Of a stretch of DNA of 64,000 nt, positions 14,543 through 45,637 are shown one piece after another. The notes beneath the pieces were generated by a model that saw only the letters and a program-made list of their open reading frames with translations, had not been told where the DNA came from and ran no database searches. Positions within the stretch are counted from its first letter, which is position 1. Every line of letters begins with the position of its first letter. Position numbers and translations under genes: made by a program. Origin of the DNA: Myxococcales bacterium (GTDB lineage Bacteria > Myxococcota_A > Polyangia > Polyangiales > DASUME01); NCBI GenBank assembly GCA_047601445.1, contig JASGJH010000001.1:6016001-6080000 (forward strand). The letters are read 5' to 3'.

Positions 14543-15667
14543 TCAGGTCTGGTCAGCGAGGGGAACGTAGACGGAGAAGCGGGTGCCCTTGCCCATCTCG
14601 CTGGTCATGTGAATGACGCCGCCGACCTCCTCCACAATACGCCTGGAAATCGCGAGGCCAAGCCCCGTGCCGCCGTCGGCCTTGGTGGTGAAGAACGGAT
14701 CGAAGACCTTCTCCAGGTCGGACTCGGCGATGCCGCAACCGTTGTCCTGGACATCGAGTCGGGCCTGCCTGCCCTCCTTGCGCAGCGAGATGTCCACGTT
14801 GTTTTCCACGCGCGGGCGCTCGGGCAGGGATTGAAGCGCGTTCACCAACAGGTTCAACACTACCTGGCCCAGCTTGGTGCGTGAGCCGCGCACGGGCGGC
14901 AGCGGGTCGAGCTCGCACCTCACTTCGGCTCGCATCCGCAGCTCGCCGCGCAGGCTAGCGAGTGTCAGCCGAATGACATCGTTGAAATCCGCGTGGTTCT
15001 CGGTGTCGCGGCGGCGCTGGCTGAGCTCGACTCCGCGCGTGATATCGGTGATGCGCTGGACGCCTTCCCGTGCGTCGGCCAACAATAGCGTTAGCTGGCG
15101 CAGGGCTTCCGAGAGCGGGGACGCCGAGGGTAGGCCTTGGAGCAAGCCCGCTACCTCTTCGCGCATCAGCGATAGATTGGTCGCCACGGCCGTGATGGGG
15201 TTGCGGAGCTCGTGGGCGATTCCGGCCGCAACCACGCCGAGCGCGTAGACACGCTCGGTCTCACGCAGGCGCAGCTCGAGGGCCTTGATGCGTTGGCTCG
15301 TTCGGTACACGGAGAGCGCTTCGGCGACGTTCGCGCGCAGCTCTTCGATGACCCACGGCTTGCGCAGAAAGCGCTGCACCTGACCGCGGTTGATGGCGGC
15401 CGTGGCGTCGTGAAAGTCGGAGTACGCCGTGATTAGAATGCGCACGACGTCGGGCCACTCGGTCCGGGTCCGCTCCAGGAGCTCGACGCCCGTCATGCCG
15501 GGCATCCGCTGGTCCGCGATGACGAGCGCGAACTGCTGCTTGCGCATCAGCTCGAGAGCCTGGGCACCGCTGCTGGCGGTGACGATCTTGAAGTCGCGCC
15601 CGCAGGCCGCTTGAAAGACCACCAGGTTCGACTCGTCGTCGTCTACGTACAGAATGGTCTCAGTCAT
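14543..15667 (-). CDS. REC-histidine kinase hybrid, PhcR-like architecture
   Basis: N-terminal REC ([20 protein letters not shown]), H-box [26 protein letters not shown]. Confidence 0.88.
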
Positions 15668-16517
15668 TGGTTGGCCTCAGGTGCAAGCCCGATTGCACCC
15701 CTGGGTGGCAGGGGAGAATACCCAGAGCACGGCACTTCATTCCCGGATTCTTTGCTCGCTTCGCCCATCGGCTGTCATCCACTCATTCTACCTACGTCCA
15801 CGTCGTTCACCGCTGGGAATGATTGCACAAAGTTGATCATCCGTGCGGCTCAGGGTGACAGAACCTGAATCCCGTCCAAGGACACCATAGGCGCGTTTCG
15901 CTTTCGTTTCCCTCACGTCACGCGCTCCTCGTTTGGTCGTCCATTCGGGCCGTCAGGTTCCCTTCGTCCGTTTCGGCTCGTCAGGTCGCCGTCCATCGGA
16001 CCAGCGCTGCGCGCGCCGACGCGTGTGCGGCGAGCGAGCAAGTGTCTCCGACTCAGTTCGAAAGGTACCGCGGAGCGCACTGCGCGCGGATCGAAGATCA
16101 ACACGAACGCGTCGCTGCATCACGCGCGAATGATGACCGCTGGTCGATAGACTCATATGGGCCTGTCGTGCAGCGATGCAGACTAAAAATCACCACATTG
16201 CGCGCGAAATACAGCCTGGATTTTCAGCTCCTACGCGAACGTCACTGCAAAGCGTTAGTCTGATCTCCACTCTGTTGATCCAAAACTAATCGCCAACGTT
16301 GACTTCCACTAATCAGCAAGCCACCGTTGTTCGGCACCAGCGAGTCTGCGACCGCAGCAAGCGTTCGCGAGAAGTCGCGCCAACCCTGAGCTGTTCACGT
16401 CTGCGCTGAAGGCATGCGCAGCGCTCGGTTGAGCAATGGATGGCATTCGTCGGGCTTTGTCGAAGCTGCGACGCAATGTCGGTGGCGCTTCCACGCTCGC
16501 AAGAAGGACCTCTACAG

Positions 16518-18107
16518 ATGAACAATTCGCCGGCTTCCATGGACGTTCAGCAGGCGCCGAGGGCAACCGCGCCCGCCGAACGCATCTCCGGCATCGCGCC
16601 GGTGCCCCCCGTTGTCCGCAACTATCAGGATCTCGAGGGAGGCGTCGGCCGGGAGGTCAACTTCCGGCCCCCTCGCTACCAGTCGGCGGAGTTCGGACCG
16701 GTTGGCGCAGTGGTCAACGCGGTGGTGGACGGCAAGAGCTACACCTGCGTGCTGCACGACGTATCGCAGAACGGCGTCGCCTTCGAATGGCACGAGGTGG
16801 GGCGTCTGGAGGTCGGTGCGACCATCTCCGTGCTTACCGTGAGCTTCGATCGGCACGAAGCCTATCGTGGGGCCGCGCGCGTGGGGTCCGTGCGCGACGC
16901 CGACGGCTATCAGCTGGTTGGGGCTTCATTCCTCGACACGCTGATGAATATCGACGACGTGCTCCAGTTGCGCGACGTCAAGGCCTGGAGCGGCGCCGGA
17001 CCGGGTCTCGCGCTCAAGGAGCGCCCCTGGCGGTTTGCCGGGCATGAACGCTTCAAGTCGCTGGTGGCGGAGATGCGTCTGCTGCTGCTGGACGCCGAGC
17101 AGCAGCTCGGTGAGCTCGAGGCCTCGCTGCCCTGGCACGTCGTCCACGGTGGCGACCAGGACCTGCCCGCGAGAGACGCTCTCATCCACCGCCTGCGCAC
17201 CGAGGTCGTGGACGAGATCATGACGGTCTACAACGAGATCGGGTCCATGCGGGATCCGGTGAGTCCGGCCGAGCATCGGGCCATGAAGGAGTACTCGATT
17301 CGTCAGCTCAACGATTTGCTCATGCAGGCATCGTGGCTGCGACGGGCACGTGACAAGCCGCTTGGTTATCCTGGCGACTTCGAGCTGATGAACGGCATTT
17401 ATGGCATCGGCGCGTTCGGCAGCTTTGCGGGCAATACCTTGTTCGCCAAGACCTTGAACTTGTTCCTGGTCAACACGCCAGCTGCGCGCGCGGTGGCCGA
17501 GCGCAAGAACGTCGTGGCTGCACGACTCTCCAAGCTGCTCGACGAGTGCAAGCCGAGCGGCCGACCCATCCGCGTGCTGTCGCTGGCGGCGGGACCGGCC
17601 CAGGAGACCTATGAACTGCTCTCGACCCGCGAACACTTCCCGACGCCGGTCGAAATCGTACTTTTCGACCAGGACAAGCGCGCCCTCTCCTTCGCCTACG
17701 GGCGCTTCAAGCAGCTCCCGGCGGTCAAGTACGGTCAGGTCCGCATCGTCTACCTCCACGACACCATCAAGCGCTTGCTGAGAGATCCCCGTCTATTCGC
17801 GTCGTTCGGCGAGTTCGACATGATCTTCTCGTGCGGCTTGTTCGACTACCTGCCGCAGGCCACGGCCACCACATTGACTACGAACCTCTACGCGAACCTG
17901 GCGTCCGGGGGCTCCCTCTACGTCGGCAACCAGACGATCAAGACCACCAGCCGCTGGCTGATCGAGTTCCTGGCCGACTGGTACCTCATCTACCGCGAGC
18001 ATTCCGAGATGCTGGCCTTCGCCAGTGCAGGCGTACCCACGGCCGACATCTCGATCCTCGAGGAGCCGACCGGCATCAACCCGTTCGTCGTCCTGCGCCG
18101 TCCCTGA
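16518..18107 (+). CDS. PilZ-like domain fused to a class I SAM methyltransferase, PhcB-like (3-hydroxy fatty acid methyl ester synthase family)
   Basis: N-terminal NFRPPRY and LHDVSQNGVAF (PilZ RxxxR-like and DxSxxG); C-terminal RARDKPLGYPGDFELMN, VLSLAAGPAQE, FDQD, GLFDYL, LYVGN, WYLIYR, recognised as PhcB-family motifs. Start 16518 preferred; 16440 possible. Confidence 0.78.
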   Translation: MNNSPASMDVQQAPRATAPAERISGIAPVPPVVRNYQDLEGGVGREVNFRPPRYQSAEFGPVGAVVNAVVDGKSYTCVLHDVSQNGVAFEWHEVGRLEVGATISVLTVSFDRHEAYRGAARVGSVRDADGYQLVGASFLDTLMNIDDVLQLRDVKAWSGAGPGLALKERPWRFAGHERFKSLVAEMRLLLLDAEQQLGELEASLPWHVVHGGDQDLPARDALIHRLRTEVVDEIMTVYNEIGSMRDPVSPAEHRAMKEYSIRQLNDLLMQASWLRRARDKPLGYPGDFELMNGIYGIGAFGSFAGNTLFAKTLNLFLVNTPAARAVAERKNVVAARLSKLLDECKPSGRPIRVLSLAAGPAQETYELLSTREHFPTPVEIVLFDQDKRALSFAYGRFKQLPAVKYGQVRIVYLHDTIKRLLRDPRLFASFGEFDMIFSCGLFDYLPQATATTLTTNLYANLASGGSLYVGNQTIKTTSRWLIEFLADWYLIYREHSEMLAFASAGVPTADISILEEPTGINPFVVLRRP

Positions 18108-18152
18108 GGGCGGGCGCGCCCGCGCAGCGAGCCGATCACAGGAGCAGAGACC

Positions 18153-19133
18153 ATGCCGACGAAGCAACTCGTCCAGGTCGCCTCACGCCTGGTCAGCAGA
18201 CTGGCCGGCTCCAACGGGCGTCGTGTAGACCGTCCGTCCGAGCAACTGCCCGGCCGAGGGGCGAGCACCCCAGAAGGCGTCCGGGTCACCTATCGCAAGA
18301 TGGAGTTCGAGTTCGAGAGCCGGGGCTTCGAGCGCCGCTGGCACAGCGACAGCACCTTCATCAGCGGCTTCTGGAACGCGCTCTCGAGCGCGTTTCCGGC
18401 CGGGGAGAGGTTCTTCATCGACGCGGCGAACTCGGTGCGCGACCGCATCGACGACCCCGTCCTGCGCGAGGAGCTGAGCGAGTTCCTGCGCCAGGAGAGC
18501 CACCATATCGTCCAGCACAAGAAGTTCAATCGCATGGTCGCGGAGCAGGGCTTCGACATGAAGACCTACGAGGCGCGCTATGCGATTCCGCTCCAGGCGG
18601 CCGCCGCCCAGTTGAAGCCGATGCAGAAGATGGCGGTGACCGTCGCGCTGGAGCACTTCACGGCCGTCTTTGCCCACCAGGTGCTGACCAATCCTGCAGT
18701 GATCGGCGGCGCCGACCCCTGCGTGTTGGCGCTCTGGTCGTGGCATTTCATGGAAGAGCTCGAGCACAAGGCCACCTGCTTCGAGGCCTATGAGCGTCTC
18801 GGGGGCAGCTACGTCACTCGGGTCAAGGCCGCGGGTCCGGCTTGGCAGCTCTACCTTCTGCTCGCTGTCCGCAGCGCGCTCAGCATGCTGCGCGAAGACG
18901 GGCGCAGCCTGGACCCGCGGGAGTACGCCCGAGGGCTCTGGTACCTGTTCGGTCCGAGCGGCTTCGTGACGAGTATGATTCCGGGCCTACTTGACTACTT
19001 CCGCCCAGATTTCCACCCATGGCAGTTCGACGACAGCAACTTGATCGCCAACTGGCAGCTGCGTAACAATCCCCACGTCAGGAGCATGCAGGTGTTCAGC
19101 CGACAGCCGGAGGTCCAGACGGCCTCCGCTTGA
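18153..19133 (+). CDS. 'Metal-dependent hydrolase' family protein (ferritin-like diiron motifs)
   Basis: FPAGERFFI, QESHH, ALEHFTA, WHFMEELEHKA, YFRPDFHPW; AGGAG RBS. Confidence 0.88.
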   Translation: MPTKQLVQVASRLVSRLAGSNGRRVDRPSEQLPGRGASTPEGVRVTYRKMEFEFESRGFERRWHSDSTFISGFWNALSSAFPAGERFFIDAANSVRDRIDDPVLREELSEFLRQESHHIVQHKKFNRMVAEQGFDMKTYEARYAIPLQAAAAQLKPMQKMAVTVALEHFTAVFAHQVLTNPAVIGGADPCVLALWSWHFMEELEHKATCFEAYERLGGSYVTRVKAAGPAWQLYLLLAVRSALSMLREDGRSLDPREYARGLWYLFGPSGFVTSMIPGLLDYFRPDFHPWQFDDSNLIANWQLRNNPHVRSMQVFSRQPEVQTASA

Positions 19134-19208
19134 GCAGGCGTCGCAGGCGGTGCTCGGCGGGCGTGTTGCCCGTGTCGACTGGCTTGGCCCGCTTCGACGG
19201 AGACGTAA

Positions 19209-21911
19209 ATGGCTGAAGTATCCCCGGTCCTCAAAGCCGCTGAGGATAGTCCCGAGCTGGAAGCTCGCTGGTCCGTGTGGCTGCTCACACGAAACCGCCG
19301 CGCGACCATCATGTGCCTCTGGCTCAACGCGGTGCTCTACCCGCTGTTCGGCGTGCTCGACTACTTCGTGGCGCCGCGCGAGTGGCTGTCGCTGCTGTGG
19401 GGCACCCGGTTCCTGGTCGCCATCGTCACGCTGACGATGTTTCGGATCGTGCGCGGACCGCTGTTCGACCGCCACTCCAACGTGCTCTCCGCGGCCTATC
19501 AGGTGCTGATCTCCTGCGGCATCAGCTTGATGACCGTGATCTTCGGTGGACTCGCGTCGTCTTATTACGCGGGTCTGAACCTGGTGATGCTGGGTGCCGG
19601 CCTGTTGTTCGTGTGGCCGCGCTCCATCGTGCTCACCACTCACGCAGCGATCGTCGCGTCGTTCATCCTGCCCAACTGGATCCTCGGCCGCACCGGCGAT
19701 GCCTTCAACTCGATCACCAACCTGTTCTTCCTGATCTCCACGGCCTGCATCGCCATGGCCGGACAGCTGGTCGCCTATCGCGTCAACCGCGAGCAGCTCT
19801 CCGCCATGCTGTTGATCGAGTCCACCACGGCCAACCTCGAGCGCGCGCACGTGAAGTTGCAGCAGCTCGACAAGTTCAAGTCCGAGTTCTTCGCCAACAT
19901 CACCCACGAGCTGAAGACGCCGCTCACGATGATCCTGGCCCCGCTCGAGCTGATGCTGCAGGGCGAATTCGGCAAGATCACGGAGACCCAGCGGGCCTCC
20001 CTCGACTCCATGCTGCGCAGCGGGATCAAGCTGCTCAAGCTGATCGGCAACCTGCTCGACCTGTCGAGGATGGATGAGTCGCGACTGCGTCTGCAGGTGG
20101 CCGAGCACGACCTCGCGGTGTACCTGCGGGACCTGGTTGCGCAGGTGCATTCGCTGGCCGGCCGCAAGGGCATCGAGCTCAGCTTCGAGACCAGCTGCGA
20201 GAGGACCATGGTCCACTGCGACCTGGAGCGGCTCGAGCGCGTGTTCGTGAACCTGCTGTCCAATGCGGCCAAGTTCACACCGGCTGGCGGCAAGATTCGG
20301 GTCTCGCTGGTGGACGCCGGCGACCGCGCGCGCGTCTCGGTGAGCGACACGGGCATCGGCTTCCCGCAGGACATGGCCGAGCGCATCTTCGAGCGCTTCG
20401 TGCAGGTGGATATGGCCGGTACGCGTAAGTTCGGCGGCACCGGCATCGGCCTGGCCCTGGCCAAGGAGCTGATCGGGCTGCACGGCGGCACCATCAGCGC
20501 CCGCAGCGAAGTGGGCGCCGGAGCGACCTTCACGGTGGAGCTCTTGAAGGACCGCGAGCACTTCGACCCCGAGCGCGTCGACCGGCGCGCGCGGCGCGCT
20601 GACCTGCTGGACGGCAATCGCGAGACCGACCGCGGCATCGGCGAGTGGGAAGTGGAGACCAAGGCGCGCTTCCGCTTCATCGACATCGACGAGGCCACCG
20701 ATCAGCGCATCGTTCAACGCGACCCCGACGAGCACGAGCGCTCGCAGAGCGTGCTGGTGGTGGACGACACCCCGGACGTCATCCGCGTGATCTACCTGGC
20801 CCTGCGCAACCAGTTCCGCGTGCTGGCCGCGCCCGATGGCGAGAAGGGCTTCGACCTGGCGGTGAGGCACCTGCCGAGCCTGATCATCACCGACCTGATG
20901 ATGCCCGAAGTGGACGGCATGGAGTTGAGCCGACGGCTGCGCCAGGACCCCCGCACCAAGCACATCCCCATCGTGATGCTCACGGCCCGTGACCACGTGG
21001 ACGAGCGCACCGCGGGCATGGACTCGGGCATCAACGCCTACCTGACCAAGCCGTTCGCGGCCAAGGAGTTGCTCTCGACGGTGCGCGGGTTGGTGCGCAT
21101 CCAGGAGACCAACGCGGACCTGGTGCTGACCCACAGCATGGACTCGCTGCAGACCATCGCCGGCGGCCTGGCCCACGAGATCAACAACCCCCTGAACTAC
21201 ATCCGGAGTGCACTCGCCATGATCCAGAGCGACGGCGAGCACATGCTCTCGATCGCCAAGGAAGGTGGCTTGAGCGGCGACTCCCCGGCGATGGAGCCGC
21301 TCTCGAGCCGCATGATGAAGATGTTCCAGGTGGCCGACACGGGGCTGCGCAAGATCGGCTCGACCGTGGAGTTGATGCAGCGCTACTCCCGCGAGGGTTA
21401 CTCGCGCACCATGCAGGCCATCGACGCCTTCGCGCTGACCCGCGACGTGGTGTCCATGCTGGAGGGGGTCGCCCAGCGCACCATCGAGCTGAGCTTCGAG
21501 GGCGAGGGCAGCGTGGAGTGCGTGCCGGACGAGCTGAGCCAGGTGCTCACGAACCTGGTGCAGAACGCCATCGATGCCACTCCCGCGGACGGGACCGGCA
21601 ACGTGCAGGTACGCGGTAGCTACGAGGGCGGCACCTTCGTCTTCTCGGTGCGCGACAATGGCCACGGCATTAGCCCGGAGGACCGAGCCAAGATCTTCAC
21701 GCCCTTCTACACCACCAAGGACGTGGGCAAGGGCATGGGTCTCGGCCTAACCATCGTGCGGCGCGTGGTCACGGCCCTGGGGGGCACCGTCACGCTGACG
21801 AGTCAGGTGGGGAAGGGCACCGAGTTCATGCTGCGCATCCCCTGCAAGCGGGCGCTGCTGATGACCACCAACGAGGCGGGCCAGACGACCTTCGAGGACG
21901 TCACGGCATAG
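19209..21911 (+). CDS. Membrane hybrid sensor kinase (TM-HK-REC-HK), PhcS-like
   Basis: About 6 TM helices with LDYFVAP, SYYAGLNLV, NLFFL; first kinase ANITHELKTP/NLLSNAAKF/GGTGIGL; REC (VVDDTPD, DLMMP); second kinase GLAHEINNP/FYTTKDVGKGMGLGL. Confidence 0.88.
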   Translation: MAEVSPVLKAAEDSPELEARWSVWLLTRNRRATIMCLWLNAVLYPLFGVLDYFVAPREWLSLLWGTRFLVAIVTLTMFRIVRGPLFDRHSNVLSAAYQVLISCGISLMTVIFGGLASSYYAGLNLVMLGAGLLFVWPRSIVLTTHAAIVASFILPNWILGRTGDAFNSITNLFFLISTACIAMAGQLVAYRVNREQLSAMLLIESTTANLERAHVKLQQLDKFKSEFFANITHELKTPLTMILAPLELMLQGEFGKITETQRASLDSMLRSGIKLLKLIGNLLDLSRMDESRLRLQVAEHDLAVYLRDLVAQVHSLAGRKGIELSFETSCERTMVHCDLERLERVFVNLLSNAAKFTPAGGKIRVSLVDAGDRARVSVSDTGIGFPQDMAERIFERFVQVDMAGTRKFGGTGIGLALAKELIGLHGGTISARSEVGAGATFTVELLKDREHFDPERVDRRARRADLLDGNRETDRGIGEWEVETKARFRFIDIDEATDQRIVQRDPDEHERSQSVLVVDDTPDVIRVIYLALRNQFRVLAAPDGEKGFDLAVRHLPSLIITDLMMPEVDGMELSRRLRQDPRTKHIPIVMLTARDHVDERTAGMDSGINAYLTKPFAAKELLSTVRGLVRIQETNADLVLTHSMDSLQTIAGGLAHEINNPLNYIRSALAMIQSDGEHMLSIAKEGGLSGDSPAMEPLSSRMMKMFQVADTGLRKIGSTVELMQRYSREGYSRTMQAIDAFALTRDVVSMLEGVAQRTIELSFEGEGSVECVPDELSQVLTNLVQNAIDATPADGTGNVQVRGSYEGGTFVFSVRDNGHGISPEDRAKIFTPFYTTKDVGKGMGLGLTIVRRVVTALGGTVTLTSQVGKGTEFMLRIPCKRALLMTTNEAGQTTFEDVTA

Positions 21912-22001: not shown

Positions 22002-22697
22002 TCAAAGCCCTGCGTAGACTGCGCGCACGTCGTCGTCGTCGTCGATGGCCTGCAGGAAGGCCTCGACTTCAGCTCGCTTCTCGTCGTCCAGGCTGACGGG
22101 GTTCTTGGCGACCCAGATCAAGTCCTGCGAGGAAAGCGTCCAGCCACGGGCCGTCAGCGCGCGTCCGACGGCGTCGAGGTCGGCGGGTTCGGTGAGAAAG
22201 CGTGAGTCGCCGTCTTCGCCCGGCTCCACTTCCTGGGCTCCGGCTTCGATGGCGGCCTCCTCGGGGTCTTCGCCGCTGGCGGGCGGGCTGGCCTCGATGG
22301 CGCCCCGGCGGAGGAAGTCCCAGGACACCGAGCCCGAGGCGCCCAGCTGGCCCTTGCGGAACAGGATGCGCATGTTGGGGGCGGTGCGGTTCTTGTTGTC
22401 GGTGAGGCACTCCACGATCACCGGCACCTGATGCGGCGCGAAGCCCTCGTAGACGACCGTCTCGAAGGTCGCGGCGTCATCCAGCAGGCCGGCGCCCTTT
22501 TTGATGGCGCGCTCCAGGGTGTCGCGGGTCATCGACGCCTTCTTGGCCGCTTCCACGGCCAGACGCAGACGCGGGTTCATCGTCGGGTCGGGGCCGCCCT
22601 TGGCGGCGATCATGATTTCCTTGGCAAGCTTGGTGAAGAGACGCCCCTTGGCGTCTGCTGCTTGCGCGCGGCCCTTGGCTTTCCACTGTGCACCCAT
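22002..22697 (-). CDS. yebC: YebC/PmpR family regulator
   Basis: [46 protein letters not shown]. Confidence 0.93.
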
Positions 22698-26837: not shown

Positions 26838-29800
26838 CTACGGAGCACACTCACCGAGCACCACGAAGCGCCCGGCGCCTCGCTCGTGATCGGGCTCGAG
26901 GACGGCAAGATCGAGGTGACCATCGCCGTCGACATCGCCGATCCACTGGCCCTGTCGGCGGTAGGGTGCCTCGGCGGGAGCGTCACTCGTCGGCAGGTTG
27001 TCGTCACCCAGGGCGATGGCGCGCGACGAACGCGGACGGCTGCCCGAGTAGGGCGCGAGCTGTTGGAACAGATCCACGCTGCCATGGGGGCCCGCCTCGC
27101 CCTGGGCCGACACGAGCAGATCGGCTCGGCCGTCTGCGTCGAGGTCGCCGAGCTGGCCGAGCTCGGGATGGGCGCCGCTCGCCACGTCGTAGCCGAAGCC
27201 GTCGGCGCTGCCGCCGGCCAGGTCGTTGAGTACGCTGAACGCCGTTACCAGGCCTTCGCCGCTGCGCCGATACAGCTGGACCGAGCCTGCGCCCGCGCCA
27301 TGGCCCCAGGCGAGCTCCGCTTGGCCGTCGCCGTCGAGGTCGCCCACCAGCGCAAGGTTCCCTGGGGTGACCGGCGCGCCGGGTTGCTGAAGCAAGCTGA
27401 GCTCGCTGCTCGCGACGCTGACCAGCTGGTCCTCGCGCGCATAGGCGCGTCCCGCGGAGAGCCAGAGCGCGGGTGCACCCTGAGAGCCCGCGTGCGCCAG
27501 GAACAGGGCACCGGGCCAGGCGCCCGCGATGAGGTCTACCGAGCGTTCGGTTTGCACTCGAAAGCCGCGCGCCGCGCTGCTGGAACCGCTGCCACAAGCG
27601 TCGGGGGCAGGGCCGCCCAGGCGCGCGTCCAAACACGAGCCCGCGCCGCTCGCGCCCAACTCGGGAATCGGCTCGAAGCCCCCGTCTCCCAGCAACACCA
27701 GAGCCCCCGCGGCATCGGCGGCGGCCAAATCCGGCAGCGCGTCGAGATCGTAGCGCGCGCTCGCCAGTGCCGCGCCGAGGCCCACGGAGCCGACGACGCA
27801 CAGGTCGGCACTGCACCCGCCCGCGTCGAGCGCGCGGTTCCCGGCAGGAAACTCTCGGCGTCCGAGCACCACGAACAAGCGTCCGCTCAGGGGCGCCGAA
27901 ATCGCGAAGTCGTTGAGGCCGAAGGCGTCACCGTCGAAATTGCCGAGCGCCACCACAGCCGTTCCGAGCTCGTAGCTGTCCGTGGTCTCGAATACGCTGT
28001 GGGCGTTCGCCGCGAGTCCGTGTGCGCTGCCGAGGTAGAGCGCTGCCGCCCCCAAGTTGCGCGGCGCCGCGCGCGACACCACCACGTCGTCGAAGCCGTC
28101 CCCATTCACGTCGCCGACCGCGGTCATGGTCAGCCCTGCGGGCTCTTCGTGTGCGCTGTCGTCGAGCTCACTCGGGAGCGGCACGCCGCGCGCCGTCAGG
28201 GCTGGTTGCTCGAACAGGTGGCTCGTACCGAGTGGCGTGTAGGCACCGACCCGGTCGTAGCCGCGCACACTGCAGTAGTGGCGCGCCCCCGGCAGCCAGG
28301 CGGGCAACGTCCACGTGAGCGCTCCGGGGGCCGAGTTGGTTCCACTTGCTCCACTAGCTGTGGAGGCCTCGTGCAGCGCACCGGGGACTGGCTGAGCTGC
28401 TTTCCAGGCAGCTTCGGAGTCGATACTGGTGCTGCTGCAGCGCAGCTCGAAACTCAAAGGGTCGTCTTCGCTCGCGCTCACCCCAAAGTTCAAGCTACTC
28501 GGCTCCCGGCAGCTGGTCGCGAGCGCGCTCGACACGAGGGCGCTCGTGGGCGCCAGGGTGTCCACCCCGAAGCGGCGCTCCGCCGCTCCGTACAGACCGT
28601 TGGTCGCAGCGCTGGCTGCATCGACCTCGATCCTCAGGCGCAGTGCCCCCTCTTGCGTGCGCACGCAGGCCACGACACGGCCCTGCCCGTTGACGCTGGT
28701 GGGCACCTCGTCCACCAGCGCTCCTGCGACGTCGTACACACGCACGCGCGCGGCGCGACCCACCGCCGCGTTGGTCACCCCGGCGATGACGGGAACCTGC
28801 AGGCCGGCCACACCACTGCAGTCGACGTCGCTCGGTGCGGTCCCGTGATAGGCCACGCCCGCCGCGCTGTGATCGACGCTGTAGACCACCTGGTCATCCG
28901 CCGGCGTCAGGATCGTCACCGCGGGCACGTCGCCCACCAGCAAGTCGCAGGGCGCGCTGCAGGCTGCGTTACCGCTCTCGTCACTGGCGCAGGCTTGGGC
29001 CTCGATCAATCCCGTCGGCAAGGTCAGCCCGGCGAACACGGTCTCAGGGCCGTCGTGCGTCTCGCTGTTGAAGGGCGAACCCGCGAGCGGACCCGCGCTG
29101 GTGCTCAGGCTCAAGCTGACCGCGGGCTTGGGGTTCGGCATGTTGCTCACGCGAAGCGTCTTCTGCAGACCGGCCTTGCCCGCGTCCTCGTCCATGTCGG
29201 AGGTGACGGCCGATAGCCCGCAGCTGAAGTTCGAGAAGCTCAGGTGCGGCGGCTCGCAATCCGCCCAGACCTCGAGCGGCGTGGACTTTCCGATCAGGCC
29301 CTTGTCGCTCGTGGTGCGGGCCGCCACCTGGTAGCTGGTGCCGTCGTTCTGCGACGGGAAGGGCACGCTCGCGAAGCTCGCGCGATGCCCGACGCAGGTG
29401 GTCTCGGCGAGCACCACGTTGTCCGGCATCCGTACCAAGCTCACCGTCTTCCCATCGAGCGCGCAAGTCACAGCGACCGCCTGATCGCAGGCCGGGGTGC
29501 TCGGGTCGGCGTCCGCCACGTGCGTCGCGTCGCCCGCTCGATTGAGCATCAAAGGTCCGTTGGGACTCTGGATACTCAGGCTCGGCCCCTTGTTCTCGAA
29601 GGTCACGGGCACCGATACCACGCTCTGGTTGTCGCTGGAGTCCTTGGTGCCCACGCACAGGAATCGTGGGCCGTTCTTGCTCAGCGTGAGCGTGGAGGAG
29701 AAGGTGGTCTGCCCGAGCGTGACCGCTTGATAGGGCGCGGCCGAGAGCTGCGCGCAGTCCGGCGTGTCCGAGTCCGCGAAGCGAGCGCTGGCGCAATCGC

Positions 29801-30950
29801 TGCCGAGGGCCGCCGTGATGGGGATCGTGAGCGACTGGCCGTCCTCCGCCGCCACGAACGTGGTGCCCGAGGCAGGACTCGTCAGGCTCACGCTGCAGCC
29901 GCTAGTGTCCACGGTGATCACCCGCTGGCTTCGGGTGGTGGCACCGGCTTCGTCGCGGCAAATCGCCATCACGCGCGCCGATCCGTCGGGCAAGGCCACG
30001 CCCTCGAAGCGAGCCACCGTGCTGCCGGGCGCGATCATGGCGGTGACCACGTTCTGCTCATCACCGTTGATCAAGAGCTGCACCGGATGGCTCGCGCCGT
30101 CGGCGTCGGTCTGCACCTCGATGTCGAGGTTGAGCCCTGGAATCTCGCCGTCATCGATGTCGTCGGCGGAGGTGTACGTGCGTTCCTCGAAGGGATTCAG
30201 CGCACACGAAGGTCCATTGCAGTCGAGCATCACGTCGGCCGGGAAGGGCACCGCGGCGCAGTGATTGTCTTCCACCAACAGCGCCAGTTTGAACGCCTCG
30301 TTGCGCAGCTCGATGGGCACGTCGGCGATCTGCAGTGTGCCCCCGCGCGTCACGCCGCTGGCCACGCGGCCGCCCTTCACCAACACCGAGACACGCGTGC
30401 CGTCGCGCAGACCCGTGGCCGCGAGCAACGGGATCGTGTAGCTCTCCCCGCAGCTCTCGCCCGCGCGAGGACCCAGCAGCAAGGGCTCACCGAGGGCCGG
30501 CGGCGCCGGATCCAGGAACGTGATGGAGCCGCAGGGGTCCTCGAAATAGAGCGTGATCACCGGCGACATGCGGCCGCTGCGCGCGTCCCGTGCGGCCAGC
30601 CGGTTGGCTCCGGGAAACAAGGTGACCGAGGGGAAGGTGGCTGCGCTGCCGCTCGTGGGCATGCGCGTGATCACCTCCGGGGCGCCACCCGAGAGTCGCA
30701 GCAGCTCGATGGGCACGCCGTCGTCCACCGTCTCCACGCGCACCTGGATCTGCATCCCGGCGGTGTAGGTGTCGACGTCGTCGGCGTCGCTGAAGGTCTG
30801 GTCGCTCGCTGGCGACACGATGCGCAGAGCGTACGGGTCTTCCTCGGCGAGATCGCAAGCGGGGACGCAGCTCACCAGGGCCAAGAGGCAGGCCCAGCGC
30901 GCTCCGTGTCTGGCTTCCGGGCCCACCAGCGCCCGTCGACTTCGCCCCAT
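26838..30950 (-). CDS. Large Cys-rich surface lipoprotein with Ig-like repeats and a C-terminal FG-GAP/integrin-alpha-like propeller
   Basis: Signal ending VPAC; repeated beta-rich modules; GDVNGDGFDD, GNFDGD, GDLDGDG, GDLDADG, GDVDGDG loops. Confidence 0.82.
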   Translation of the reverse strand: MGRSRRALVGPEARHGARWACLLALVSCVPACDLAEEDPYALRIVSPASDQTFSDADDVDTYTAGMQIQVRVETVDDGVPIELLRLSGGAPEVITRMPTSGSAATFPSVTLFPGANRLAARDARSGRMSPVITLYFEDPCGSITFLDPAPPALGEPLLLGPRAGESCGESYTIPLLAATGLRDGTRVSVLVKGGRVASGVTRGGTLQIADVPIELRNEAFKLALLVEDNHCAAVPFPADVMLDCNGPSCALNPFEERTYTSADDIDDGEIPGLNLDIEVQTDADGASHPVQLLINGDEQNVVTAMIAPGSTVARFEGVALPDGSARVMAICRDEAGATTRSQRVITVDTSGCSVSLTSPASGTTFVAAEDGQSLTIPITAALGSDCASARFADSDTPDCAQLSAAPYQAVTLGQTTFSSTLTLSKNGPRFLCVGTKDSSDNQSVVSVPVTFENKGPSLSIQSPNGPLMLNRAGDATHVADADPSTPACDQAVAVTCALDGKTVSLVRMPDNVVLAETTCVGHRASFASVPFPSQNDGTSYQVAARTTSDKGLIGKSTPLEVWADCEPPHLSFSNFSCGLSAVTSDMDEDAGKAGLQKTLRVSNMPNPKPAVSLSLSTSAGPLAGSPFNSETHDGPETVFAGLTLPTGLIEAQACASDESGNAACSAPCDLLVGDVPAVTILTPADDQVVYSVDHSAAGVAYHGTAPSDVDCSGVAGLQVPVIAGVTNAAVGRAARVRVYDVAGALVDEVPTSVNGQGRVVACVRTQEGALRLRIEVDAASAATNGLYGAAERRFGVDTLAPTSALVSSALATSCREPSSLNFGVSASEDDPLSFELRCSSTSIDSEAAWKAAQPVPGALHEASTASGASGTNSAPGALTWTLPAWLPGARHYCSVRGYDRVGAYTPLGTSHLFEQPALTARGVPLPSELDDSAHEEPAGLTMTAVGDVNGDGFDDVVVSRAAPRNLGAAALYLGSAHGLAANAHSVFETTDSYELGTAVVALGNFDGDAFGLNDFAISAPLSGRLFVVLGRREFPAGNRALDAGGCSADLCVVGSVGLGAALASARYDLDALPDLAAADAAGALVLLGDGGFEPIPELGASGAGSCLDARLGGPAPDACGSGSSSAARGFRVQTERSVDLIAGAWPGALFLAHAGSQGAPALWLSAGRAYAREDQLVSVASSELSLLQQPGAPVTPGNLALVGDLDGDGQAELAWGHGAGAGSVQLYRRSGEGLVTAFSVLNDLAGGSADGFGYDVASGAHPELGQLGDLDADGRADLLVSAQGEAGPHGSVDLFQQLAPYSGSRPRSSRAIALGDDNLPTSDAPAEAPYRRQGQWIGDVDGDGHLDLAVLEPDHERGAGRFVVLGECAP

Positions 30951-30969: not shown

Positions 30970-32280
30970 TCACACCAGGATTTCGGCGTCGGCCGCCAGC
31001 GACTCTTCGGCGGAGACCGCCCGGATCTCGTCGTCGCGTCGCGTGGCCAGCTCGTACAGCTCGACCAGCAGGCCAGGGTAGGTGCGCATCAACGTCTTGA
31101 GGCTCTCGCGCGTCAGTTCGTAGGCCACCGTCGGGTACATCGCGAGCACGTCCGCCGTGGCGTCGCGCCGTAAAATCAGCGAGATCTCGCCCACCACGTC
31201 GCCCGCGCCCAGCGTGGCTAGCACCAGCCGGTCTTGCCCCTCCGGCACGGACACGGCCACGGCGCCGCTGGCGATGAGGTAGATGCTCTCGGCCTCCTGC
31301 TCGCGCACGATCAGGGCCTCGTTCGGCTCGAAGAAGCGCATCTCGAGCTTGCCAAGGAGCTCCGCCCGCTGGCTCATGGGCAGGCCGGAGAGCACTCGCG
31401 CGTGGCGCATCAAGTTCGCCTGCATGCGACCGCGGCAGAACAACGAGAGCTCCTTGCTCAGCTCGGGCGCTCCCTCTGCCGCACGCTCCAGCTCGGCGCG
31501 TCCGAGCACGAGCAGCTGCGTCGGCTCCAGGGCGACCACGCTGGCGCTGCGCGGCGCCGCGCTCAAGAGGGCCATCTCGCCGAACATGGCGCCCGGCCCC
31601 AGCTGGGCGAGCAGCGTCTCGTCGCCGCCCGTGCTGCGCACCACTTTGAGCACGCCGCGCGCGACCACGAAGGCTTCCTGACCCTGGTCGTCCTGGCGCA
31701 CCACGGCCTGTCCGCCCGAGATCTCCTCCACGCGAATCGCATTCAACAGGCGGCCGAGCTCCTTGGGGGGTAGGGCGGCGAACAGCGGCAGCGCCGGCAA
31801 CGGGCTGTCGGCCGGCACCGGGTCCTCGAGCTTCAGGTAGCCCTGCATCACCTCGTCGGCCTCGGCGTACAGGGCGTCGCCGGAGAGCTTGTTCAGGTCG
31901 GGCTGGACATCGATCTTGGGGAAGGGTGGCGGGCGCTGCGTGTTGTCGCCGATGCGCGGGGAGCCCTTGGCGAAGGCCTTGGCGATCTGGGCGATCAGGG
32001 GGGCCTGGTCTTCGCCGGCGTCGAGGGCCAGCGTGCTCGCCACCAGGGCACCCGGGAGGTCGCCGCGGCGAATGAAGGCGTCCACCAGGCGTGCCGCGAT
32101 TTCGGCCCCGAGCAGGGTACGATCTTGGTCGATCAGCACGCGCGCCACCAACGCCACCGGACCGGGTGCTTCGCGGCTCGCGCGAGCGCAGGCGAGGGCC
32201 AGACGCAGGGCGGCTTCTTCGTCCCCGTCGAGGCGATGGGCGTGGGCTTGATCCAGAGGCGAGAGCACGTGATCGGTCAT
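30970..32280 (-). CDS. Protein with two cyclic nucleotide-binding domains
   Basis: LGPGAMFGEMALLSAAPRSASV and LGAGDVVGEISLILRRDATADV; helical N-terminus. Start ATG 32280. Confidence 0.88.
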   Translation of the reverse strand: MTDHVLSPLDQAHAHRLDGDEEAALRLALACARASREAPGPVALVARVLIDQDRTLLGAEIAARLVDAFIRRGDLPGALVASTLALDAGEDQAPLIAQIAKAFAKGSPRIGDNTQRPPPFPKIDVQPDLNKLSGDALYAEADEVMQGYLKLEDPVPADSPLPALPLFAALPPKELGRLLNAIRVEEISGGQAVVRQDDQGQEAFVVARGVLKVVRSTGGDETLLAQLGPGAMFGEMALLSAAPRSASVVALEPTQLLVLGRAELERAAEGAPELSKELSLFCRGRMQANLMRHARVLSGLPMSQRAELLGKLEMRFFEPNEALIVREQEAESIYLIASGAVAVSVPEGQDRLVLATLGAGDVVGEISLILRRDATADVLAMYPTVAYELTRESLKTLMRTYPGLLVELYELATRRDDEIRAVSAEESLAADAEILV

Positions 32281-32418
32281 GGTTCCTGGGTCTCGAGGTG
32301 CCCGCGTCTGCGGGCGAGCGACGCTACGATAACAGCTTTTTTCCAGCCTCCAGAAAGTCCGCGGGTGCATCGCCCCTAGCGGCTCCGGAGCTTTTCGCGA
32401 GGGCCCGAGCCGAGCGAC

Positions 32419-44233: not shown

Positions 44234-45076
44234 CTAGACCGGTTCCAGACGCGCCATCACGTCTGCAAGATTCTCGCGCCAGTCGGTCATGGGGCCGACC
44301 AGGGCTTCGGTGGGAGCGAGGTCGAGCACGCTGTAAGCGGGGCGCTTGGCGGGGCGCGCAAAGTCTGCTGAAGTCGTCGGCAAGACGCGCGCCTTGTGGC
44401 CCGCGATGCGCACGATGGCGCTGGCGAACTCGAACCAGGTGCACTCGCCGCCGTCGGTGACGTGCAGCGTGCCACGCGCACCCTTGTCGAGCAGCGCGAG
44501 GGTCACGCGCGCCAGGTGCTCGGCGCTGGTGGGCCGGCCGCGCTGATCGTTCACCACTTTGAGCTCGTCACGCTCACGCGACGCCTTGTAGATGGTGCGC
44601 ACGAAGTTGTTGGCCCACGGCGCGTAGAGCCAGCTCGTGCGTAAAATCAGGTGCGGTCCTTTGGCATCCCAGATGGCCTGCTCGCCCACGGCCTTGGAGC
44701 GCCCGTAAGCGTTGACCGGCGCGTGCGGCTCATCCACGCGATAGGGATGACTCGACTCGCCCGGGAACACGTAGTCGGTGCTGTAGTGGACCAAGGGAAT
44801 GTTCCGCTTGGCGCAGGCCTCTGCCACGATGCGTACGCCCTCACCGTTGGCGCGGGTCGCCGCGGCTTCGTCGGCCTCGGCGCCGTCGACGTTGGTGTAG
44901 GCCGCGCAGTTGAGCACTGCGGAGAAGGGCTGCGCGAGCACGCTCTCGACGTGCGCCGGATTGGTCAGGTCGAACTCGGGCAAGTCGACGCCCACGAAGG
45001 ACTCGCCGCGCGCCGTGAGGAGCTCGCGCAGAGCGCGCCCGAGCATGCCTCGTGCTCCCAGGATCAATGTGCTCAT
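44234..45076 (-). CDS. rmlD: dTDP-4-dehydrorhamnose reductase
   Basis: GARGMLG, NCAAYTNVD, STDYVF, YGRSK, DQRGRPT, AKRPAYS; own ATG at 45076. Confidence 0.93.
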   Translation of the reverse strand: MSTLILGARGMLGRALRELLTARGESFVGVDLPEFDLTNPAHVESVLAQPFSAVLNCAAYTNVDGAEADEAAATRANGEGVRIVAEACAKRNIPLVHYSTDYVFPGESSHPYRVDEPHAPVNAYGRSKAVGEQAIWDAKGPHLILRTSWLYAPWANNFVRTIYKASRERDELKVVNDQRGRPTSAEHLARVTLALLDKGARGTLHVTDGGECTWFEFASAIVRIAGHKARVLPTTSADFARPAKRPAYSVLDLAPTEALVGPMTDWRENLADVMARLEPV

Positions 45077-45637
45077 CGGAAGTCCTCGTAGCGCGGCAGC
45101 TTGTTGGGATCGATCTGCGAGAGCTTGGGGTTCTTGAGAATCCTTGGCGCCCAGCGTCGGGTTCTTGATGGGCCAGGCGATGGCCACGTCCGGATCGTCC
45201 CAGGCGATGCCCACCTCGCACTCCGGGTGGTAGAGGTCCGTGCACTTGTAGGCGAACTGCGCGAACTCGCTGACCACGCAGAAGCCGTGCGCGAAGCCCG
45301 GTGGCACCCAGAGCTGATGATGGTTCTGGGCCGACAAGGCCACGCCGGTCCACTTGCCGAAGGTTGGCGAGCCCACGCGGACATCGATGGCCACGTCGAA
45401 GACTTCGCCTTCCACCACGCTCACGAGCTTGCCCTGGGCGTGCGGCAGCTGCATGTGCATGCCGCGCAGGATGCCGTGGGAAGAACGCGACAGGTTGTCC
45501 TGCACGAAGGGCAGCCGAATGCCCACCTCGGAATAGCGCTTGGCCTGAAAGGTCTCGATGAAGAAGCCGCGCTCGTCGCCGAACACCTGCGGTTCGATCA
45601 AGAGCACCTCGGGCAGTGATTGTGGAGTGACCTTCAC
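45073..45637 (-). CDS. rmlC: dTDP-4-dehydrorhamnose 3,5-epimerase (apparent one-base insertion near 45139 fuses it to rmlD)
   Basis: FGDERGFF, VQDNLSRS, LRGMH, QGKLV, GFAHGF, YKCT; the natural-looking C-terminus KNPKLSQIDPNKLPRYEDFR* is in another frame. Confidence 0.9.

Follow-up and report, generated by a model that had tools for sequence, protein, structure and literature searches.

A distant Phc-type methyltransferase and sensor module in a Myxococcales genome

In this study we analyse a four-gene locus at positions 14543-21911 of a window of 64,000 nucleotides (nt) from a Myxococcales bacterium (contig JASGJH010000001.1, positions 6,016,001 to 6,080,000), and find in it a homologue each of phcB, phcS and phcR, known from the quorum sensing of Ralstonia. 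The homology holds because the profiles for PhcB, the membrane domain of PhcS, PhcR and PhcQ all converge on this locus. By analogy with Ralstonia, the locus is probably a real, distant Phc-type module that works like Phc, with a fatty-acid methyl ester as the diffusible lipid it produces and detects; the narrower proposal of a 3-hydroxy C14 or C16 methyl ester as the product is given somewhat less than an even chance. The original prediction had seen here the same set of synthase, sensor and regulator as in Ralstonia. This is upheld in part: it holds as far as homologues of PhcB, PhcS and PhcR are concerned, and fails for the sensor architecture, PhcQ and PhcA, so that the module lies outside phcBSRQ/phcA membership. 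The four open reading frames are all at their predicted places, stop-free and intact.

Homologues of PhcB, PhcS and PhcR

The reference for all comparisons is a set of 80 phc loci of Burkholderiales (the best 80 of 329, with no strain of the R. solanacearum complex included), from which profiles for PhcB, PhcS, PhcR and PhcQ were built with 47-80 proteins each and searched against the six frames of the whole 9.5-Mb genome. The reference operon is that of Ralstonia chuxiongensis (L166), accepted as the phc anchor because its enzyme carries the NCBI name PhcB and because R22 of PhcB, L161 of PhcS and R154 of PhcQ stand at the numbers of residues described as mutated in PMC6989110. A complete Phc system is described for Cupriavidus JMP134 (PMC2842291). 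A long PhcR match is recovered in 47 of the 80 loci, and the phcR position is occupied by a receiver domain alone in Paraburkholderia L003 (10751-11155) and L111.

The candidate signal synthase is a class I methyltransferase dependent on S-adenosylmethionine (SAM), of 529 amino acids (aa), at 16518-18107 on the plus strand. It carries the motifs that had been named for it, KPLGYPGD at 280, GLFDYL at 440 and WYLIYR at 488, and is laid out as a PilZ-like domain (about 62-141), a helical domain and the methyltransferase domain. The PhcB profile gives two matches in the genome, the best being this protein with an E-value of 8e-35, and in pairwise alignments of 442-485 aa it shows 24-25% identity with PhcB (E 1e-33 to 1e-35). 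In the reverse search the sole match of the methyltransferase is phcB in three of three Ralstonia/Cupriavidus genomes, while hhalign aligns the two families at 100% over 443 columns, with 28 positions conserved in at least 80% of the sequences in all three groups. These reciprocal best matches, together with the alignment and the shared positions, identify a full-length PhcB orthologue, in accordance with the homology first proposed. A profile of the PhcB N-terminus finds no match in the genome; the profile-profile comparison of this part gives 88.8%. Pfam reports only a weak PilZ match (PF07238, E 6e-4, below the cut-off) and weak methyltransferase matches, and NCBIfam has no model covering the protein, nor one covering real PhcB. 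The link to PhcB is already seen by annotation pipelines, since by a hand count about 40 of the 120 matches listed are named '3-hydroxypalmitic acid methyl ester biosynthesis protein' by JGI; the closest named ones among these matches bear the labels Polyangiales or Polyangiaceae. The predicted structure has the Rossmann-like class I SAM fold with motif I and an acidic residue after strand 2, G359-P360 and D384 being common to the enzyme and PhcB, and its fold match 3ocj has a Z score of 20.2 (root-mean-square deviation, rmsd, 3.2; 252 residues aligned). A sequence search for solved relatives of this enzyme or of the diiron protein described below returns one weak polyketide synthase (PKS) match only. 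Elsewhere in the genome (G000:C1:1560034-1560702, minus strand) there is a second, short PhcB-like methyltransferase in a 366-aa frame, 31% identical over the catalytic part, and no six-helix sensor is matched near it.

The candidate receptor, at 19209-21911 on the plus strand, is a 900-aa protein with a six-helix membrane domain followed by a first histidine kinase (HK1), a receiver domain (REC) and a second kinase (HK2). Pfam confirms the proposed membrane HK-REC-HK architecture with two HATPase_c, a HisKA and a REC domain; the expected LDYFVAP and SYYAGLNLV are present, and the phosphorelay residues H233 (HK1), D562 (REC) and H656 (HK2) are intact. The profile of the PhcS membrane domain has a single match in the genome, which is this sensor (E 0.003), and with the whole-PhcS profile it ranks first of 154 matches. 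Between the membrane domains hhalign gives 98.3-99.6%, and D51, R67, M108, S117, Y119, Y120, G122, L125 and G131 are common to both myxobacterial clades and PhcS, so the claim that the homology to PhcS includes the membrane part is well supported. A sensor with a PhcS-type membrane domain thus accompanies the phcB homologue, but its layout is not that of PhcS, which joins the membrane domain to a single kinase (442 aa). Of the two kinases, the second is the better match to the PhcS kinase core in 64 of 64 sensors, so that PhcS looks like the sensor minus its middle HK-REC block; the kinase subclass alone may explain this. The predicted membrane domain consists of six helices and a signalling helix (pLDDT 96), and its fold matches are ImcA (8wcn, Z 16.7) and the cyclases AC9 (6r3q, Z 16.3, rmsd 3.6, 207 aligned), AC5 (8sl3, Z 13.8) and Rv1625c (7yzi, Z 9.8), the next unrelated rows having Z of 9.3 or less.

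The third homologue is the REC-HK relay kinase of PhcR-like architecture at 14543-15667 on the minus strand (374 aa, receiver and C-terminal kinase by Pfam), with D52, K103, H152 and intact ATPase motifs. It is first of 217 genome matches to the PhcR profile and 29% identical to PhcR, which bears out the suggested homology. In the reverse search PhcR is the top match for it in one of three genomes and the second in the other two, being always the best full-length match. With the PhcQ profile the REC-HK is also first, of 42, and these matches cover receiver domains only (positions 11-133), so no PhcQ-like stand-alone regulator is found in the whole genome, as none had been reported in the window. 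The same extension applies to PhcA: genome-wide, the best LysR protein is 30% identical to the presumed PhcA and stands among 10 generic matches. The query is a presumed PhcA, chosen for its place about 10 kb past phcQ and its length of 347 aa.

Between the enzyme and the sensor, at 18153-19133 on the plus strand, lies a 326-aa protein of family PF10118 (E 1e-75, 255 bits against a cut-off of 33.2). Its E-x-x-H motifs at 115 and 202 and the ferritin-like pattern of predicted diiron ligands (E85, E115, H118, E167, E202, H205) agree with the diiron enzyme first described here, as judged from motifs. The gene adjoins the methyltransferase in one of 79 genome loci and in none of 19 further loci, and this rules it out as a core tailoring step. 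Thus of the plus-strand run of three genes that had been taken as part of the module, the methyltransferase-sensor pair is kept and the diiron gene is not. The genome itself holds about 12 PF10118 paralogues (13 matches), with at most 40% identity. In L181 a relative of the diiron gene (59%) precedes the enzyme, L185 has fragments of it (49%), and the metagenome relative L174 keeps a 3' remnant after a deletion of 870 nt. It is a labile accessory travelling with this subclade.

Compared with the known systems, the locus is like Phc in having a full-length PhcB homologue upstream of a PhcS-type six-helix sensor (with one gene between them here), a REC-HK ranking first in the genome against PhcR, and a second sensor kinase that the PhcS core resembles. 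It differs in the extra HK-REC block, the low enzyme identity, the longer PilZ-like N-terminus with a DxSxxG motif kept by the enzyme, the lack of a separate PhcQ and of PhcA, the divergent REC-HK outside the operon, and the accessory diiron gene. From CqsA of Vibrio and LqsA of Legionella, which are aminotransferase-type enzymes, the candidate synthase here differs as a methyltransferase. The receptor shares its six-helix membrane design with CqsS/LqsS and with class III cyclases, the link being one of fold through the cyclase domains, which does not reveal a ligand; the lipid receptor CqsS is described as sharing a six-helix, short-loop design for lipophilic ligands with the membrane domains of adenylyl cyclases (PMC4821796), and fatty acids are reviewed as modulators of such cyclase domains (PMC12414865). 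In architecture, an HK-REC-HK protein feeding a REC-HK is also like LvrA/LvrB of Leptospira, in which phosphorylation of the receiver is reported to free the kinase (PMC5863495, PMC13269768). The top NCBIfam match of the sensor is in fact LvrA (NF047465), but with 314 bits against a cut-off of 1200, and LvrB has 88 against 500; LvrA is described as cytoplasmic and without membrane helices (PMC5863495), whereas the sensor here has a membrane domain. Membership in LvrA/LvrB is ruled out by these scores and by the membrane domain.

Conservation and exchange of the pair

The enzyme is found in 88 of 401 sampled genomes of the phylum (E <= 1e-10), and in 64 of 251 genomes of the order (1e-20). We took 79 enzyme-matched loci by score and spread, blind to their neighbours. 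Among them, 72 have the sensor, which is directly downstream on the same strand in 66, and this confirms that the synthase-sensor pair is co-conserved across the phylum; the profile detecting the sensor was built from 51 such sensors, which makes the count partly circular, and a Burkholderiales-only profile detects it in 45 of the 79. Three of the seven loci without a sensor end within 600 nt. All 19 further loci hold both genes, having been selected for enzyme and sensor matches on one contig. The patristic distances of enzyme and sensor are correlated with a Spearman coefficient of 0.88 over 77 pairs (permutation maximum 0.24), which indicates joint inheritance and is not proof of co-adaptation, because kin are not independent.

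The history of the site can be followed through the yebC-family gene at 22002-22697 (minus strand), which lies outside the module and marks the site by its identity to the flanks in congeners. Congener G450 has the same flanks, with a GAF kinase, fabG-like and curA-like genes, the REC-HK (88% identical) and yebC (92%), and between yebC and the REC-HK it has a co-directional enzyme-sensor pair that is 31% and 32% identical to that of this genome. In congener G403, with yebC (84%) as flank, the REC-HK (78%) is preceded by a sensor of the G450 clade, 62% identical to that of G450, and an enzyme is absent; this receptor and REC-HK site without a synthase (L247, 6473-11227) is a candidate listener-only strain. 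The pair of this genome shares 65-67% identity with genes from a different family, among which it is placed with support of 97-100 in a quick midpoint-rooted tree of 123 methyltransferase cores, and both sensor clades occur with this type of REC-HK. On the most parsimonious view of the synteny, an older pair of another clade was probably replaced, in inverted orientation, by the present one, the REC-HK being native, and the inverted insertion would account for its divergent orientation. With such a joint replacement of synthase and sensor at the same site, the strain would probably have changed its signal 'dialect'. The direction of the swap is likely and not proven, because only two of nine congeners are syntenic; six others carry yebC in unrelated contexts, which do not polarise it. 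No remnant of the older pair and no mobile-element ends were found at the site. The divergent intergenic region at 15668-16517, the left junction of the putatively swapped pair, has 850 nt with 58.6% GC and is shared in part with L174, and a search for promoter, terminator and repeats within it gave nothing above chance. The GC content at third codon positions of the module genes (0.85-0.93) is similar to that of the flanking genes.

Such a history also raises the question of whether the module here might be a mosaic, newly acquired, uncoupled or in decay, that has no working output. A foreign sensor adjoining a native REC-HK would fit this, as would the loss of most of the diiron gene in L174, the absence of a sensor beside the enzyme of G468 and that of a synthase in G403. 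The intact frames and motifs of all four genes speak against it, L174 keeps the enzyme at 90% and the sensor at 88%, and the nearest relatives of the sensor are accompanied by the same type of REC-HK (45-50% identical); thus we consider decay very improbable.

The receptor family and the nature of the signal

To see what else accompanies the receptor, 40 loci were picked by the sensor, mostly without a strong enzyme match nearby. The slot upstream of the receptor is occupied by a PhcB-type enzyme in 6, by a PilZ-LuxD-methyltransferase fusion in 18 (16 of which were used to build the fusion profile), by a PKS in 3, and in one by a PilZ enzyme of ambiguous type. The LuxD part of the fusion matches 1THT (E 3e-7), an MMPL exporter accompanies several of these loci, and no such fusion is found in this genome. 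That unrelated lipid enzymes occupy one slot argues for a lipid product.

Several of these loci deserve description in their own right. The PilZ-LuxD-like thioesterase-methyltransferase fusion stands before the receptor in L240 (8680-11217, minus strand) and 17 other loci among L207-L246, often with the MMPL exporter. In L216, L219 and L230 a 2,240-aa reducing PKS is directly upstream of the receptor, and L200 has a PKS, a PhcB-type enzyme and the receptor in one run. In L207 (8854-11310, minus strand) an 819-aa PilZ-containing enzyme precedes the receptor; Pfam shows PilZ only, and its C-terminal part seems N-acyl amino acid synthase-like. In L245 (5703-8582, minus strand), L227, L236, L237 and L243, single reading frames of about 950-1010 aa combine the PhcS-type six-helix domain with a class III cyclase, a cyclic-nucleotide (cNMP)-binding domain and a PhcB-like methyltransferase domain; their methyltransferase-like domain is degenerate in some, and L227 and L236 carry an additional separate cNMP-methyltransferase gene. 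Two membrane Ser/Thr kinases of this genome, L205 (G000:C1:6979687-6983244) and L206 (G000:C1:6111345-6114881), have a weak six-helix match and are possible orphan receptors. Enzymes of cyclic di-GMP (c-di-GMP) metabolism (GGDEF-EAL, REC-EAL, REC-HD) recur near modules in L066, L072, L091, L213-L215, L218 and L241.

Receptors of c-di-GMP of the PilZ type have the motifs RxxxR and [D/N]xSxxG. In the enzyme here D81-x-S83-x-x-G86 is invariant, and of the 54 proteins of clade I, 50 have DxSxxG, against none of the 80 Burkholderiales PhcB; at the first motif this protein reads RxxR (R50, R53), as do 46 of the 54, and 19 of 30 clade II proteins read RxxxR. This PilZ-like N-terminus may suggest that the methyltransferase acts as an output or modifier of the pathway under the control of a nucleotide messenger, its target being a metabolite, a membrane lipid or, CheR-like, the kinase, rather than making the ligand. 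Binding domains for cNMP in the place of PilZ, the five loci with receptor-cyclase-cNMP-methyltransferase fusions and a weak CheR match (E 4e-5, below the cut-off) point the same way. Gating, however, fits positive feedback on signal synthesis as well, the top fold matches of the enzyme are small-molecule and PKS methyltransferases, the slot elsewhere holds a LuxD-methyltransferase or a PKS with an exporter, and in Ralstonia the signal is reported to be made by PhcB (PMC7694676, PMC6989110). We therefore judge the output role unlikely.

It is still less likely that the sensor serves a cell-internal lipid circuit, reading a free (hydroxy) fatty acid or a prey lipid which methylation would remove or store, with no sensing of density. 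Six-helix cyclase domains are reported to respond to free fatty acids (PMC12414865), and sensors without a nearby synthase exist, as in G403 and the two Ser/Thr kinases with a six-helix match here; yet eavesdropping would fit orphan receptors equally. The co-divergence and the joint replacement of enzyme and sensor fit a private signal, and in Ralstonia PhcB and PhcS are described as having co-evolved with the signal type (PMC7694676).

Several observations weigh against the reading of the locus as a Phc-type signalling module. SAM motif I is LSLAAGP, against LNVGCGP, with the first glycine changed to alanine, and the Burkholderiales PhcB form a separate long branch in the tree; given this branch and the identity of 23-25%, the substrate may differ from that of PhcB. 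The six-helix domain is broad, being present in 171 of 401 genomes, having 5032 representatives, and fused also to cyclases and Ser/Thr kinases, and therefore does not fix the ligand. Among the sensor-picked loci 12 of 40 have no recognised enzyme of these kinds, and the cyclase fusions place the methyltransferase downstream of the receptor. Four of the 79 enzyme-picked loci have no sensor despite downstream room, and a stand-alone REC-HK, of two types, is called in only 45. Finally, the helix after H656 is unlike that in the sensors of congeners, so the coupling of the sensor to the native REC-HK is putative.

Under the Phc-type reading, which we still prefer, the methyltransferase would, as inferred from PhcB, use SAM to turn a fatty acid, probably a hydroxylated one, into a membrane-permeant ester by methylation at its carboxyl group. 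From what is known of PhcS, CqsS and LvrAB, the ester would bind the six-helix domain of the 900-aa kinase, and phosphate would pass from H233 to D562, switching on the second kinase at H656. It may then pass from H656 to D52 of the REC-HK, to H152, and to an unlinked response regulator other than PhcA; the Ralstonia relay model is itself stated to be unvalidated (PMC7694676). More speculatively, the PilZ-like domain may gate the synthesis, and the diiron protein may tailor the acyl chain.

Neighbouring genes and implications

As for the neighbours, the adjacent fabG-like and curA-like genes were considered as members of the pathway and rejected, since they are absent from 59 other loci of the phylum, only G450 having both. 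Three further minus-strand genes of the window are apparently unrelated to the module, encoding a 1370-aa FG-GAP repeat protein (26838-30950), a protein with two cNMP-binding domains (30970-32370) and a fused dTDP-sugar epimerase/reductase (44234-45637).

Phc signalling has so far been described for Ralstonia and Burkholderiales relatives, and the available text of a 2026 review confines the system to the R. solanacearum complex (PMC13220807); we found no report of a Phc-type system in myxobacteria in literature that included few subscription journals. Here, relatives of the enzyme occur nearly always beside the receptor in 88 of 401 genomes. If they are alike in function, a fifth of these social predators have an unstudied diffusible signal, with an enzyme and a receptor open to direct assay. 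One may even imagine, as a doubtful though conceivable picture, that Myxococcota have phylum-wide lipid channels, in which one six-helix receptor would be served by interchangeable synthases (PhcB-type, LuxD-methyltransferase or PKS) gated by c-di-GMP or cyclic AMP, and close relatives would exchange the pair in place around a constant relay kinase, or give up the synthase and only listen. This genome would then have switched dialect, its diiron enzyme leading to an undescribed oxidised or unsaturated ester, and social predators could have in the whole a chemical means of discriminating kin and of cheating. Within one genus the site exists in three states, namely the old pair, the receptor only and the new pair, which amounts to a natural experiment on dialect switching and eavesdropping. 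In addition, through the fold link the membrane domains of adenylyl cyclases, whose ligands are a standing question, would gain a pair of ligand and receptor for comparison.

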